32,000 nucleotides of DNA from Mycolicibacterium smegmatis (GTDB lineage: Bacteria > Actinomycetota > Actinomycetes > Mycobacteriales > Mycobacteriaceae): positions 3,090,001 to 3,122,000 of the forward strand of contig NZ_LN831039.1 of the NCBI RefSeq assembly GCF_001457595.1, given 5' to 3'. Position 1 is the first letter of the stretch; the number at the start of each line of letters is the position of its first letter. The notes beneath the pieces are model-generated. The model was not told the DNA's origin, did no database searches, and saw only the letters and a list, made by a program, of their open reading frames with translations. A program made the position numbers and the translations under genes. This document shows positions 21,367-30,190 of this stretch, piece after piece.

Positions 21367-21798
21367 ATGACGAACATGCGAAACGTGACGAAGAGGGTCG
21401 GCGCCGCGGTGTTGGCGGCGTCGGCGTCCATTGCGGTGGTGGGACAGGCGACAGCGCATGCGGAGCCCGAGGGCCACCAGGTCCGTTACACATTGACGTC
21501 TGGCGCGCCTTACGAGTTCGACCTCTACTATCTGGCGACGCAGCCCGCGGACAAGGCGGCCTACGACGCCGATCCGTACGCCTACCTGCAGAAGGCCGAG
21601 GTGAACGTCGCTCCGGACGCGCCATGGGTCTTCGAGACCACACTGGCCGATCCGCAGTGGGCGATCTTCACGGTGTCCAGCACGACGCACGGCGGACGGG
21701 GCGCGCCGAACGCGCACTGTGAGATCGCCGTCGACGGCGAGATCGCGACGCAGAACGACCACCCGTACAGCCCGCGGTGCCAGCTGGGCAACTGGTGA
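21367..21798 (+). CDS. Small secreted protein with an MmpS-like domain (hypothetical)
   Basis: Part of track ORF 21337..21798, using the ATG at 21367 or 21376. It has a Sec signal ...AVVGQATAHA/EPEG. The mature domain pattern VRYTLTSG...YY...APDAPWVFETTL...IFTVSS...HCEIAVDGEIATQ...PRCQ resembles the MmpS soluble domain with its two Cys. Confidence 0.6.
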   Translation: MTNMRNVTKRVGAAVLAASASIAVVGQATAHAEPEGHQVRYTLTSGAPYEFDLYYLATQPADKAAYDADPYAYLQKAEVNVAPDAPWVFETTLADPQWAIFTVSSTTHGGRGAPNAHCEIAVDGEIATQNDHPYSPRCQLGNW

Positions 21799-21829
21799 CC
21801 TGAGGATTCTCAACATCTGAGAGCTGCTT

Positions 21830-21865
21830 GACACCCCTATCGAACTGTTGTTCGATAGGGGTGTC
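21830..21865. terminator. Perfect 16-bp-stem / 4-nt-loop palindrome between convergent genes; candidate bidirectional terminator that also contains a perfect SOS box
   Basis: gacacccctatcgaac-tgtt-gttcgataggggtgtc has no mismatch. The core at 21840-21855 is TCGAACtgttGTTCGA. It lies 32 nt after the MmpS-like stop and 112 nt after the alpha/beta hydrolase stop. Confidence 0.6.
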
Positions 21866-21976
21866 TGCGTTTGATCGGTTCCGCTTCCGCTCCGACGCCG
21901 GCTTGACTGGGCACGCGCCCTCGGCGCGCGCCGGTGCCGTACCCGAAACCGCGGCACCGGCGCACCCAGTCCCTGC

Positions 21977-22792
21977 CTAGGTCCCTTCGGCGTGCCGGAC
22001 GGCCCTCGAGATGGCGTCAGCCAGGTCGGCGGGCGCTTCGACATGGGCCAGATGGCCCTGCCCGGGGAGTCGGGCCAACCGTGCCTGCGGCAGCGCCGCG
22101 GAGAACGGGACGAACGCCGTCCCGTACGGCGCCGCACCCTCGTTGAGTGCGCCGAGGATGAGGGTGACCGGAACCGTCAGGTGACGGTAGTCGTCGAAGG
22201 ACGGCTCGAATGCGTCGATCGCGGCGAGTTCCTCGCCCATCGGCTGCGCGAGCGGCCTCAGTACCTCCCATGCGGGGCTGCGGCGGAGGCCGGCCACATA
22301 GTCGTCGGAGAAACCGGATACATCGGTGTTGACGAGAGCGACCGCTCGGTCGAGGTCACCCGCGGCGACTGCGGCGCGGATGGGTGCGACGGTCTCGGGT
22401 GCGAAGGGGCGACTGACGGGTTCGTACGCCGTGACCGACCGGATCCGGCCGGAACCGAGCGCGGCCTCCAGTCCGATGAGCGCACCGTAACTCCAGCCGA
22501 CGAGGTGCACGGCCCCGAGCGCGCCGACGACGCGTCGCAGGTCGTCGACCTCGACGGCGACCGAGTAGTCCGCGCCCAACCCACCGCTCGACGCGCGACC
22601 GCGGCGGTTGAGGGTGACGACGGGGTTCGGCAGGTCGATGTGCGCCACCACGGGCCGCCAGGTCGCGGCGTCGGCCATGATGCCGGGCACGATCACCACC
22701 GGTGTGCCGTGGCCCGGTCGCACCTCGGCGCTCAATCGCGTGTCGGCGGTTTCCAGGCTGAGGTGAAGTGGCTCTGCGTGCGTGAGAATCAC
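21977..22792 (-). CDS. Alpha/beta-fold hydrolase
   Basis: 271-aa ORF with the nucleophile elbow GWSYG. Its GTG start overlaps the TGA of the upstream hydratase gene (GTGA at 22789-22792). Confidence 0.8.
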
Positions 22793-24426: not shown

Positions 24427-25766
24427 CGGTGTTCGATCCGTGCGGCCAGATCGAACAGCATGCCCTCGTTGCCGGGCGCGCTGATCAGTTGCAACCCGAC
24501 GGGCAGACCCGAGACGACGCCTGCGGGCACGCTGAGCGCGGGATGCCCGGTGAGGTTCCACGGGCAGGTCAGCGACAGCAGTGCCGATCGCACCTCGACG
24601 GCGTGGCCGTCGATCTGGTGGGCGCGCTGGTCGATCTCGGTCGCGACCGTCGGCGCAGCGGGCATCGCGAGTACGTCGAACCGCGTGAGCAGGGTGTCGG
24701 CTGCCGCGCGCAACCTGTCACGTTGGCGGCAGGCACGCACGTATTGCCATGCGGGCGTGTCCCTTCCGCGCAGCAGGCGTCCGAGCACCTCGGGGTCGAT
24801 GTCGGATGCACGCTGCTCGGTCTCGGCGCTGTACTCGGTATAGGCCTCGCTGGACTGCAGGACGCTGAGCGCCTCGAACACCTCGCCCGCCGCGAACGGC
24901 AGTCCGACGGTGCCGTCGACCGTGATCTGCGCGGCGCGCAGCGTCTCGGACAACGCCGCGATGATTGCCGGGTCACACGGGCCGAGGCATGCGGGATCCA
25001 GCCAGGCGACCCGTTGCGCGCGAACCGGATCGGGGGACCGGCCGGCCATGGCCGTGTACGCCGCCGCTGCGCCGGTCGCGGTGCGGGCGAACACCCCGAC
25101 GTGATCCAGCGATGCCGCAAGGGGCCAGACGCCCCGCGCCGGGATCGCGCCGTAGGCCGGCTTGAACCCGACCACACCGCACAACGCGGCGGGTACGCGG
25201 ACCGAGCCTGCGGTGTCGGTGCCGACAGCCAGGGGAACCATGCCCGCGGCGGTCGCCACTGCACTGCCGCCGCTCGATCCGCCGCTGATCCTGCTGGGAT
25301 CCCAAGGGTTTCGTGATGCGCCGTGTGCCGATCGGTCACCGGTCGCGCCGAAGGCGAATTCGTGCAGGACATTCCTGCCGACGATCACCGCGCCCGCGGT
25401 GCGCAACCGGCGCACGCATTCGGCGTCGGCGGTCGCCGGACCGGGGTGGACCACCGAACCCCGCGTCGTGACGTGTCCGGCGACGTCGACGAGGTCCTTG
25501 ACCGCGACCGGGATGCCGTGCAGCACACCGCGGTCATGGCCACGTGCGAGTTCGGCATCGGCGTGCCGCGCGGCGTCGAGCGCGCCTTCTGCGTCCACGG
25601 CCGTGAAGGCGTTGAGGGTCGGATCGAGCCGTGTGATGGCGGCGAGGCTGTGCTCGACGAGTTCGACACTCGTGGTGTGGCCATTGCGAAGATCCGCTGC
25701 GAGGGAATGGATGTCGTGGTCGCGGAAGAATCCGGTCAACCCGGTGGTATCGGCTGTTTCGGTCAT
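24423..25766 (-). CDS. Amidase-signature family amidase
   Basis: In-frame part of track ORF 24423..26807. The ATG at 25766 ([10 protein letters not shown]...) overlaps the upstream stop (ATGA). It has the AS motif [14 protein letters not shown] and a Ser-cisSer-Lys context ([20 protein letters not shown]). Confidence 0.9.
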
Positions 25767-26896
25767 GATGTCGTGATTCCTGGGAGCAGTTGAAGGGATG
25801 GGACGATTACGGCGGTGGCGACGGCCATGGCGGCAACGTTGCCGATGAACGGATGGAAGTCGCCGGGCAGTAGTGCCGAGATCCGGTCGGCGAGTGGTGG
25901 ACCCAACAGTGCCCCGAGCAGTGCACCGGCGAGCACCGACGCCGCGGTTCCGCCGTACGTCAGCACGCAGGCCGGCGCGACCGACACCACGGGCACGAAC
26001 GTCGGGTAGAACGGGCGGCGTGCCCAGCGGGTCCGCCACACCGACACGGCCACCACGGCGGTGAGCACCTGTGCGGCGAGAATCTGTGGGAGCAGCCCTG
26101 ATCCATAGGCCACCGAGGCGGGTGCCATCGCGTAGGCGATCAGGGCGCCCGCGACGAGTCCGAGGCTCGCCCACTCGCTTCCGAAGAACGGCGCCTCGGA
26201 GAAGTCGGCGACGCAACGCCGCAGCACCCACACCGGTCCGGTCCTGACCGCAGGAGCCGGCGGTGATGCCGGGCCCCGGGGGAGCGCCGGCGCGGGCACC
26301 CACGGGAGATGTCGGCAGATCATGAACGCGATCACCGCCGCGATCGCCATCCCGCCTGTGACCCCGACGACCGACGGCACACCGAGTCGCGGGCACAGGA
26401 CGCTCGCACCGAGCACCGAGAGTGGCGGGGTCACCACGCCGCCGAGCACGCCACCGGTGAGTACGGTTTTGATATCGGCACCGAACATCAGCACGATGGT
26501 CGGTGACACCGAGACGAACGGCGCGAACAGCGGTTGCCAGATCCCTGCCGACAGGGTCCATCCCCACAGCAGGTTGCTGACTGCGACGCCCAGCATGGCG
26601 CTGGCCAGCATCGGCACCCACATGCCGGATCCGCACGCCTGCGCGAACCCCTGCAGGCGGTGCCCGCGTCTGTGCAGCCAGTGCGCCAGTGCACCGCCGG
26701 CGATCAGACCGAGACCGGACAGGGCGTTCGAGTAGAACGTGGGTTCGCTTGCCGCCGAGGCGATCTGCGCGAGCATCGGCGTGACGGCATGCAGGCTGCC
26801 ACTCCACAGCAGTGCGGCGAACAGGCAGATCGCGGCGACCAGGGGCAGCAGCGGGAGCGCGGCGTCGGGTGGACGCGTGGACGGAGCGGTCGTCAT
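25763..26896 (-). CDS. Polytopic integral membrane protein of unrecognised family (putative transporter)
   Basis: 377-aa ORF with about 10 hydrophobic spans in two halves, separated by a Pro/Arg-rich loop (LPWVPAPALPRGPASPPAPAVRTGP). I recognise no MFS, APC or ABC motif. The ATG at 26896 lies 9 nt after the nitrilase stop. Confidence 0.6.
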   Translation of the reverse strand: MTTAPSTRPPDAALPLLPLVAAICLFAALLWSGSLHAVTPMLAQIASAASEPTFYSNALSGLGLIAGGALAHWLHRRGHRLQGFAQACGSGMWVPMLASAMLGVAVSNLLWGWTLSAGIWQPLFAPFVSVSPTIVLMFGADIKTVLTGGVLGGVVTPPLSVLGASVLCPRLGVPSVVGVTGGMAIAAVIAFMICRHLPWVPAPALPRGPASPPAPAVRTGPVWVLRRCVADFSEAPFFGSEWASLGLVAGALIAYAMAPASVAYGSGLLPQILAAQVLTAVVAVSVWRTRWARRPFYPTFVPVVSVAPACVLTYGGTAASVLAGALLGALLGPPLADRISALLPGDFHPFIGNVAAMAVATAVIVPSLQLLPGITTS

Positions 26897-29018: not shown

Positions 29019-29059
29019 TCGACCGCGCCGAGCGTGCGCGCGCCTCCTTGACAACGCGG

Positions 29060-29075
29060 TCGAACGCATGTTCGA
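29060..29075. promoter_or_regulatory. Perfect mycobacterial LexA SOS box TCGAAC-gcat-GTTCGA
   Basis: Read directly from the sequence. It lies 6 nt downstream of a perfect TTGACA (29048-29053) and covers the first ATG (29068) of the radical SAM ORF. Confidence 0.7.
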
Positions 29076-30102
29076 TGGTGGTGTGCGTTGGGATGAGCAG
29101 GCCGTGCGGGTCGATGACGGGGCGTTGCCCGGTCTGGCCCGTGTCGGCTTCGTCCGCAGCGTGCGGGCCCCGGAATTCGAGGGGATCACGTTCCACGAGG
29201 TGCTGTGCAAGTCGGCACTGAACAAGGTGCCCGCTGCGTCGGCGCTGCCGTTCCGGTTCACGGTCAACGGCTACCGCGGGTGCACGCATGCCTGCCGGTA
29301 CTGCTTCGCCCGGCCGACGCACGAATATCTCGACTTCGATCCGGGCGTGGATTTCGACCGCCAGATCGTCGTCAAGACCAACGTCGTGGAGGTCCTGCGC
29401 CGCGAGTTGCGGCGTCCCTCGTGGACGCACGAGACCGTCGCGCTCGGCACCAACACCGACCCGTACCAGCGCGCCGAGGGCCGCTATGCCCTCATGCCCG
29501 GAATCATCGGGGCACTGGCGGATTCGTACACGCCGTTCTCGGTCCTGACCAAGGGCACGCTGCTGCGGCGAGACCTGGGACTGATCGCTGAGGCGGCCCG
29601 TCGCGTCGAGGTCAGCGTCGCGGTGTCGCTGGCGATCGGCGACGCAGACCTGCACCGCGACATCGAGCCCGGTACGCCGTCACCGCAGGCCCGGTTGGCG
29701 CTGATCTCCGCGATCCGCGACGCCGGCCTGTCGTGCCACGTGATGGTGGCGCCGGTGCTCCCGTACCTGACCGATTCGGCCGAGCACCTCGACGATCTCC
29801 TGGGCCGCATCGCGGAAGCGGGCGCCACGAGTGTCACGGCGTTCGGGCTGCATCTGCGGGGGAGCACCCGCGGATGGTTCATGTCGTGGCTGGCGTCGTC
29901 GCATCCGGAGCTGGTCTGGAAGTACCGCCAGCTCTACCGCAAAGGCGCGTATCTACCTGCCGAGTACCGGCACATGTTGCACGACCGCGTGCAGCCGCTG
30001 ATCGTCAAGCACGGGCTGGCCGGTCAGCCGCGGATGCCCGCGCCGGAGACGCCGACGCCGCAGGTCGCACGGCCCGAGCCGGTGCAGGCCGCGCTGTTCT
30101 GA
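29068..30102 (+). CDS. Radical SAM protein, Rv2578c / SplB-like ('DNA repair photolyase' COG) family
   Basis: 344-aa ORF with the CxxxCxxC cluster motif GCTHACRYC. It is the conserved neighbour of the hisS region in mycobacteria (recollection). The start is uncertain: GTG 29083 (giving MRWDEQAV...) is a strong alternative because the ATG at 29068 lies inside the SOS box. Confidence 0.85.
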   Translation: MFDGGVRWDEQAVRVDDGALPGLARVGFVRSVRAPEFEGITFHEVLCKSALNKVPAASALPFRFTVNGYRGCTHACRYCFARPTHEYLDFDPGVDFDRQIVVKTNVVEVLRRELRRPSWTHETVALGTNTDPYQRAEGRYALMPGIIGALADSYTPFSVLTKGTLLRRDLGLIAEAARRVEVSVAVSLAIGDADLHRDIEPGTPSPQARLALISAIRDAGLSCHVMVAPVLPYLTDSAEHLDDLLGRIAEAGATSVTAFGLHLRGSTRGWFMSWLASSHPELVWKYRQLYRKGAYLPAEYRHMLHDRVQPLIVKHGLAGQPRMPAPETPTPQVARPEPVQAALF

Positions 30103-30142
30103 CGGACCGGCAGTGGCCAACCTCACCCTCGGCCGCCTGCCA

Positions 30143-30190
30143 ATAGTTATGTTTTTATAACTATAATCTGATCGGTAATGCGCTGATCAG
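30143..30190 (+). promoter_or_regulatory. AT-rich promoter/operator island upstream of the Bcr/CflA gene
   Basis: An inverted repeat ATAGTTAT-n6-ATAACTAT spans 30143-30164 and overlaps a perfect TATAAT (30162-30167). CTGATC (30168-30173) and the palindromic CTGATCAG (30183-30190) follow. There is no good -35 element. Confidence 0.5.

Follow-up and report, generated by a model that had tools for sequence, protein, structure and literature searches.

The mycobacterial LexA regulon is small and nearly all of its members are proteins; LexA binds in these bacteria to the motif TCGAAC-N4-GTTCGA, and to our knowledge no LexA-repressed small RNA with a clear operator–promoter arrangement has been characterised in mycobacteria. 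In Escherichia coli, tisB/istR-2 and symE/symR are type I toxin–antitoxin pairs, consisting of a hydrophobic toxin peptide and an antisense RNA, and classical small RNAs derived from 3' untranslated regions (3'-UTRs) are processed from, or start within, a living gene. Two LexA-bound small RNA loci, MTS1082 and MTS2823, have been described in M. tuberculosis (Smollett et al., 2012, PMC3381160). At MTS1082 the LexA peak lies inside the small RNA, over a box with two mismatches, and MTS2823 has no identifiable box; neither RNA was induced by mitomycin C (PMC3381160). In the same species, Rv2578c has a LexA peak in chromatin immunoprecipitation sequencing and shows RecA-dependent induction (PMC3381160). 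The subject of this report is an SOS box at positions 21840–21855 of a 32-kb stretch of Mycolicibacterium smegmatis DNA (the whole stretch being referred to below as the window), which lies between two convergent genes. With a probability of about 0.72, this box is the LexA operator of a real promoter making a non-coding RNA of about 110 nt (105–115 nt, from 21863 to about 21971). On this reading, the RNA gene is what remains of a copy of the neighbouring LexA-regulated radical SAM gene after an internal deletion, and it has been kept under selection in the lineage of M. smegmatis, M. wolinskyi and the M. fortuitum group.

The SOS box and its promoter

The segment 21830–21865 reads gacacccctaTCGAACtgttGTTCGAtaggggtgtc and is made up of two fully complementary 16-nt arms on either side of a 4-nt centre, tgtt. 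Its core, TCGAAC-tgtt-GTTCGA, matches the mycobacterial motif at 12 of 12 specified positions. A pattern search of the window returned two perfect SOS boxes, starting at 21840 and 29060, and none was found in 100 dinucleotide-preserving shuffles of the window. A preliminary description of this DNA had pointed to the perfect box and had deemed a chance match in 32 kb very unlikely, and both statements agree with these results. Its "36-bp perfect palindrome" holds for the arms, which are fully complementary, but not for the non-palindromic centre, so that the feature is better called an inverted repeat with a 4-nt spacer. The very stable RNA hairpin that it announced was recovered (−33.7 kcal/mol on the plus strand and −31 kcal/mol on the minus strand, with z-scores of −8 and −10), beginning 32 nt 3' of the stop codon of the upstream gene MSMEG_2983, and the flanking stop codons lie where it had put them, at 21796–21798 for this plus-strand gene and at 21977–21979 for the convergent hydrolase gene on the minus strand. 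The "MmpS-like" label that it gave to the upstream gene was not demonstrated, the precomputed Pfam assignment of MSMEG_2983 being PF27168 (Rv2576c_beta). The second perfect SOS box, 7.2 kb downstream, and a TTGACA hexamer overlapping the left arm were both absent from it. The features of the promoter region are as follows.

21830–21865, no strand assigned: inverted repeat of two 16-bp arms around 4 nt, with the outermost 10 bp of either arm specific to M. smegmatis
21840–21855, no strand assigned: predicted LexA operator (SOS box), perfect at all 12 positions here and in every orthologue
21828–21833, plus strand: −35 hexamer TTGACA, 6 nt before the box, with TTGAC invariant in 26 of 26 aligned elements
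21851–21856, plus strand: −10-like hexamer TTCGAT inside the right half-site of the box, assigned from its spacing
21863, plus strand: transcription start site (TSS), a G, from Table S7 of Martini et al. (2019), 3048941 (+) (PMC6448022)
21807–21823, plus strand: small hairpin UUCUCA-acauc-UGAGAG just 5' of the −35 hexamer, from a fold of the intergenic region

Exact protein matches assign the window to M. smegmatis mc2 155 (CP000480 and CP001663). Near the inverted repeat, window position x corresponds to position x + 3027078 of NC_008596, as checked against the published coordinates of MSMEG_2983; past a 1-nt indel inside 25766–26896 the offset becomes x + 3027077, as checked against those of MSMEG_2991. 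The TSS at NC_008596:3048941 (+), a high-confidence entry of Supplementary Table S7 of Martini et al. (2019, PMC6448022), thus falls on window position 21863, 8 nt past the SOS box, and the same 8-nt distance is found at the second box. These TSSs come from libraries that discriminate 5'-triphosphates, and this one is placed among the promoters without ANNNT (Martini et al., 2019, PMC6448022). Li et al. (2017) give only the start site of MSMEG_2983 here. A transcript start near 21866 on the plus strand had been predicted in the preliminary description, at most 3 nt from the published one. The second of its options, a LexA-controlled promoter for a small RNA, an antisense RNA or a small open reading frame (ORF), is supported by the TSS, by a geometry like that of the radical SAM promoter and by conservation in about 29 sequences, and its remark that an operator would not be expected at such a site loses its premise once an unannotated RNA gene is recognised. 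No −35 hexamer was found for a mirror-image promoter on the minus strand, and the part of the published table consulted for this region holds no minus-strand TSS.

The −35 hexamer and TTCGAT are separated by 17 bp and the last T of TTCGAT stands 7 nt before the TSS; from this spacing TTCGAT, a weak hexamer, is taken to be the putative −10. The T that follows GTTCGA is invariant in the elements orthologous to this one (class A), and the arrangement TTGAC(A/G)-N6-box-T is invariant across the 26 aligned elements. The TTGACA-N6-box layout is common to the element at 21828, to 29049–29075 and to radical SAM promoters of other species (class B). In distant class B promoters that read GTTCGAAT, with AT instead of T after the box, the start codon is shifted 1 nt downstream, which fits TTCGAT as the −10. 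The box thus lies between the −35 hexamer and the TSS and contains the −10-like hexamer, an overlap of operator and core promoter that is the classical layout for repression. The regulation proposed here, in which repression by LexA is put forward because of this geometry and the known behaviour of mycobacterial LexA, would involve a sigma-A-type plus-strand promoter composed of TTGACA, the 17-bp spacer, the weak −10 in the right half of the box and a start at G21863. In an undamaged cell, a LexA dimer on 21840–21855 would occlude both spacer and −10 and thereby repress transcription; upon DNA damage, RecA-stimulated self-cleavage of LexA would free the promoter, which would then yield the RNA of about 105–115 nt, with a 5' hairpin and a very stable 3' module of several stems that would set its 3' end.

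The small hairpin at 21807–21823 accompanies the element even where the element is not beside an Rv2576c-like gene. Its counterpart in other species is TCCCA-cggac-TGGGA, the sequence of the stem differing between species, and it may serve to terminate the upstream gene or else belong to the upstream region of the promoter. About 25 nt 5' of the −35 hexamer are alike in the small RNA and radical SAM promoters (cacgg.ctgg.at..ccTTGAC; 21800–21827 versus 29020–29048, and loci L007–L032), and this stretch, which reads cgacacgggtggaattaccTTGACA in class B promoters, is strongly conserved within that class; it could be an UP-like element or the site of a second regulator.

Conservation and descent from a radical SAM gene

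Loci from 53 species genomes were fetched via relatives of the upstream protein, the presence of a box not being a criterion. A perfect SOS box with TTGAC 6 nt upstream, followed 90–171 nt further on, in the same orientation, by a near-invariant 67-nt segment (GACTGGGCAAGCGCCCACGGCGCGCGCCGATGCCGTACCCGAAACCGCGGCATCGGCGCACCCAGTC), was found at 25 of the 53 loci, all from Mycolicibacterium, and the three metagenome contigs fetched with a 21-nt piece of this segment all carry a perfect box and a −35 hexamer upstream of it, likewise at 90–171 nt and in the same orientation. M. wolinskyi shares the whole gene order of M. smegmatis and has the element in the same place, with a perfect box. The box is perfect in all of the approximately 29 other sequences, and mean pairwise identity differs sharply between the parts of the locus, as listed here.

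SOS box: 0.96
−35 hexamer: 0.94
3' module: 0.92
5' hairpin loop: 0.90
Four-fold degenerate sites of the neighbouring gene: 0.67
Spacer from box to start: 0.58
Spacer from −35 to box: 0.47
3' flank: 0.36

These contrasts indicate that the promoter, the operator and the transcribed structure are probably under purifying selection, unlike the bases between them. Only the radical SAM promoter, with no remnant, is present in M. hassiacum and M. elephantis. In these two species (L065:3614–6001 and L066:3462–6001, respectively) a UvrD-like helicase gene lies between the Rv2576c-like and radical SAM genes, in divergent orientation, and the single SOS box may serve both divergent genes.

The second perfect box of the window belongs to a promoter that resembles the one described above, and the gene that it serves is a member of the Rv2578c family.

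29049–29083, plus strand: sister promoter with TTGACA, 6 nt, the SOS box TCGAACgcatGTTCGA (29060–29075) and a TSS at GTG 29083, from Table S7 of Martini et al. (2019)
29083–30102, plus strand: Rv2578c-family radical SAM gene MSMEG_2990, leaderless, 339 aa, assigned by NF038135

The TSS listed for it in Supplementary Table S7 of Martini et al. (2019, PMC6448022), 3056160 (+), corresponds to a G at window position 29083, 8 nt past the box. The gene is leaderless, since this TSS is the G of the opening GTG; the ATG at 29068 given by the annotation and by the ORF finder, 15 nt upstream of this GTG, falls within the operator and has probably been annotated wrongly as the start. Against NF038135 the protein reaches 519.7 bits (cut-off 430), and its best 120 homologues all come from Mycolicibacterium.

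The 3' module of the element is homologous to the last 30–35 or so codons of intact Rv2578c-family genes (L011, L014, L019 and L024). Elements of a long form are found in five species, including M. wolinskyi and M. brisbanense; in local alignments against the ends of the L014 gene, the 5' part of the long form matches the radical SAM promoter and about 25 initial codons (MRLDGQGVRVDD), the 3' part matches the last 150 nt or so, and the short forms align to the last 100 nt or so. In M. smegmatis, the remnant peptide LTGHAPSARAGAVPETAAPAHPV aligns with LTGRAPVARAGAVRETAAPAHPVLF and the stop of the intact gene. Some 110–190 nt remain in all, with no intact radical SAM domain or ORF. The long-form junction at L010:4680–4700 holds a short microhomology, GCGCGGTGC, which both alignments to the parent gene, 5' and 3', have in common and which suggests a microhomology-mediated deletion. 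Homology to the promoter and first codons on one side and to the last 35 or so codons on the other points to a gene copy with an internal deletion that has persisted as a small RNA gene, and the simplest reading is that a LexA-regulated copy lost its interior, so that promoter, operator and start would have become fused to the structured 3' end, the resulting mini-gene being retained. A double hairpin of the same kind, with compensatory changes, occurs within the coding end of intact genes at L011:4850–4983, L014:5600–5734, L024:5520–5654 and L019:4510–4639; the end of the radical SAM gene of M. smegmatis itself (30040–30102) is without it. Four gene orders were seen.

Order 1: remnant directly upstream of the intact gene, the boxes about 190–350 bp apart
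Order 2: convergent hydrolase gene between the remnant and the intact gene, about 1.1 kb
Order 3 (M. smegmatis and M. wolinskyi): remnant and intact gene about 7.2 kb apart, with five more genes between them
Order 4 (more distant species): Rv2576c-like gene followed by the intact gene, with no remnant

Two further observations concern the neighbourhood of MSMEG_2990. Between its stop codon and the gene for a major facilitator superfamily (MFS) permease, MSMEG_2991, an AT-rich inverted repeat (TAGTTATgtttttATAACTA, 30140–30170) stands in a GC-rich spacer and looks like a candidate binding site for a regulator; the published TSS of MSMEG_2991 (3057252) is at about window position 30175. Within 25766–26896, CP000480 and CP001663 lack 1 nt that is present in the window and in other M. 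smegmatis assemblies; this deletion takes the called product from 377 down to 362 aa and is either a sequencing error or a strain difference.

The RNA and the readings weighed against it

From the mapped TSS, the RNA of M. smegmatis folds at −64.5 kcal/mol (z-score −5.6), and the transcribed region contains the following features.

21863–21902, plus strand: 5' hairpin with the conserved apical loop UUCCGCUU at 21879–21886, from folds and compensatory stem changes
21905–21971, plus strand: 3' module, an outer stem GACUGGG/CCCAGUC around 5-bp and 13-bp hairpins, with the loop ACCCGAAACC, from folds and conservation
21861–21980, plus strand: remnant frame GTG...TAG of 39 codons, which keeps the ancestral C-terminal frame and is probably untranslated, from translations

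Compensatory changes are found in the stem of the 5' hairpin, where at one pair, for example, 13 sequences have GC and six have AU, and in the long stem of the 3' module, where AU and GC replace one another. The consensus fold of 20 sequences gives the same structure as the M. smegmatis fold, with 35 pairs and 97% of cells paired, as against 29–50% in slid controls with the partners shifted by 1–3 columns. Six pairs have changed on both sides, compared with 2.3 in shuffles, and none of 500 shuffles reached six. The last base of the 3' module lies 6 nt short of the stop codon that closes the convergent hydrolase gene, and the module is presumed, from the modelled fold, to be a terminator or 3'-end structure. 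No Rfam family matched in the window at gathering thresholds, and what a permissive scan of 21780–22000 returned was chance-level miRNA and snoRNA noise below threshold. One M. peregrinum strain (L029:5950–5985) has, in the long 3' hairpin, the exact reverse complement of the usual 12-nt apical loop (CGGTTTCGGGTA versus TACCCGAAACCG), so that the loop is inverted between hairpin arms whose stem is intact.

Several points weigh against an SOS-controlled RNA gene. The promoter is detected as a TSS in unstressed log-phase cells, so LexA repression would be incomplete at best, and a consensus promoter scan called no promoter at 21830–21880, the −10 being without the usual A at −11; this negative is uninformative, because the scan demands an A at position 2 of the −10 and also missed the TSS-validated sister promoter. 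Covariation is modest, because the 3' module hardly varies, and much of the structure of the RNA is inherited from the coding end of the parent gene. The 3' end is placed from structure, the 3' module having no U-tract. The 5' loop has been lost in L007 and the loop of the long hairpin is inverted in L029, so neither is indispensable everywhere, and the complements of the loops UUCCGCUU and ACCCGAAACC have no meaningful match within the window. In the literature, no LexA binding or damage-induction data were found for 21840–21855 and no mention was found of MSMEG_2983 or MSMEG_2984; a published description of the small RNA was likewise not found, and the items on MSMEG_2990 are irrelevant to the site. 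If the RNA has a function, this is most likely, judging from the pattern of conservation, that of a regulator that acts in trans or binds a protein. Under a tentative proposal, to which we give rather less than an even chance, the element would be a functional riboregulator induced by the SOS response, and its near-invariant loops would bind an mRNA or a protein, providing a post-transcriptional arm of this response in mycobacteria.

An inert relic of a dead radical SAM copy, with a promoter that still fires and an RNA that does nothing useful, is an unlikely account, although several facts suit it: the origin by internal deletion is clear, the reading frames are broken, the +1 start codon has been lost in M. 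smegmatis, L007 and L029 have altered loops, the search with the loop complements yielded no function or target, and M. hassiacum and M. elephantis lack the element. A neutral relic as diverged as this should, however, have lost its boxes, and 29 of 29 are perfect; across the approximately 29 sequences, conservation is far higher in the box, the −35, the 5' loop and the 3' module than in flanks, spacers and the four-fold sites of the neighbouring gene, and the element survives differing rearrangements of its neighbourhood.

A LexA-regulated leaderless micro-protein of about 40–75 aa, read from an [A/G]TG at +1 in the old C-terminal frame of the radical SAM gene, seems improbable. A GTG or ATG stands exactly at the expected +1 in 18 of the 19 aligned orthologues, 11 of which keep the ancestral frame (RFRFR.DARLTGQAPTARADAVPETAASAHPV), the GTG at 21861 of M. 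smegmatis is in frame with the 39-codon ORF, and leaderless RNAs starting with ATG or GTG are generally known to be translated in mycobacteria (see also Martini et al., 2019, PMC6448022). The mapped TSS, however, lies 2 nt inside this GTG, so that the M. smegmatis RNA starts with GUC, and the +1 codon is GAG in two metagenome copies. In eight of the 19 orthologues the frame is shifted, by 1-nt indels, or stopped after 10–14 codons, and peptide lengths vary between 10 and 133 residues, the stop position not being conserved. Substitutions in the stem (GAT/GGT paired with TCG/CCG; D/G and S/P) preserve the pairing and change the amino acids, and the 39-aa frame has no match in protein family libraries. 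A protein-coding reading was therefore rejected on the broken frames, early stops, lost start codons and missing family matches.

It is very improbable that the promoter exists to direct RNA polymerase, upon damage, into the 3' end of the hydrolase–fumarase–amidase operon, an antisense or convergent transcription that would lower the expression of the operon during the SOS response. The promoter does point at the hydrolase gene in M. smegmatis, M. wolinskyi and at least 10 other species, and read-through would be possible, since the 3' module has no U-tract; yet the element is equally conserved in at least eight species in which the radical SAM promoter follows it directly and there is no convergent gene, and its strongly conserved part is the structured RNA, which precedes the stop codon of the hydrolase gene.

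The 10-bp arm extensions that complete the inverted repeat are a change specific to M. smegmatis, outside the conserved design. Contiguous complementarity beyond the SOS box amounts to 10 bp in M. smegmatis and to 0 bp in the other 25 class A elements, in which one to five of the 10 extension positions match, as expected by chance. The right arm of M. smegmatis, taggggtgtc, stands in place of the usual ta.....GTG, and the +1 codon is now GTC. The extended palindrome was rejected as a repeat family or conserved element, its arms being non-complementary in every orthologue. In two unrelated class B (radical SAM) promoters of other species, at L032:4609–4644 and L051:3491–3526, the inverted repeats are extended by 9 and 7 bp, and most class B promoters have no extension. 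Such extensions, recurring sporadically in single lineages, suggest that mutation now and then "perfects" the inverted repeat for which the box is the seed, and template switching at quasi-palindromes may be the cause. The 36-nt hairpin is not part of the small RNA, because its left arm lies upstream of the TSS; it would form only in read-through transcripts of MSMEG_2983, where it might aid termination, at most as a side benefit. No terminator-like site was called at 21830–21880 on either strand, the tail, UGCGUUUGAU, containing no U-tract, so that of the features of an intrinsic terminator a stem-loop is present, a U-tract is absent and the stem is not conserved among orthologues. A bidirectional intrinsic terminator that merely resembles an SOS box, or a LexA roadblock at the end of MSMEG_2983, both among the explanations offered in the preliminary description, is hardly credible in spite of a hairpin that is very stable on both strands and close behind the stop codon of that gene, since the box is invariant and perfect in all 25 orthologues that lack the extensions, the U-tract is missing, the hydrolase transcript would reach the 3' module long before the 36-nt hairpin, and the TSS maps to the edge of that hairpin. 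A roadblock is not needed to account for the site.

Significance and relation to known systems

As a probable SOS-controlled small transcript, the element is of a kind already known; its evolutionary history is unusually legible. The birth of the RNA gene can be followed in related species, in which the intact parent, long remnants (with about 25 N-terminal codons) and short remnants coexist, and a riboregulator, if that is what the RNA is, would be a clean and datable case of a regulatory RNA born from a gene remnant. The proposal is directly testable, as the species is a laboratory model, the start site is mapped and the element is conserved in opportunistic pathogens of the M. fortuitum group. 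For annotation, the lesson is that SOS boxes that seem to stand "after" genes warrant a search for unannotated transcripts.

The closest relative of the element is the promoter of the Rv2578c-family radical SAM genes, with which it shares TTGACA, the 6-nt spacing, a perfect SOS box and a TSS 8 nt past the box, and with which it is homologous from about 25 nt 5' of the −35 hexamer into the first transcribed bases; it differs in driving a non-coding remnant of about 110 nt rather than a 339-aa enzyme, and its RNA in M. smegmatis opens with GUC rather than with a leaderless GUG. Likened by description, MTS1082 and MTS2823 are also LexA sites associated with small RNAs, not with protein genes, in a mycobacterium, whereas the M. 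smegmatis box is perfect and stands in operator position relative to a mapped TSS. Like tisB/istR-2 and symE/symR of E. coli, the element has a predicted LexA operator over a short transcript that encodes no classical repair enzyme; unlike them, it has no conserved ORF, no hydrophobic peptide and no antisense partner. With small RNAs derived from gene remnants or 3' ends it has in common that the RNA is the structured former 3' end of an mRNA, a structure shared with intact paralogues elsewhere, but in contrast to classical 3'-UTR-derived small RNAs it would owe its existence to a deletion that put the damage-responsive promoter of the parent gene directly before the 3' end of that same gene.

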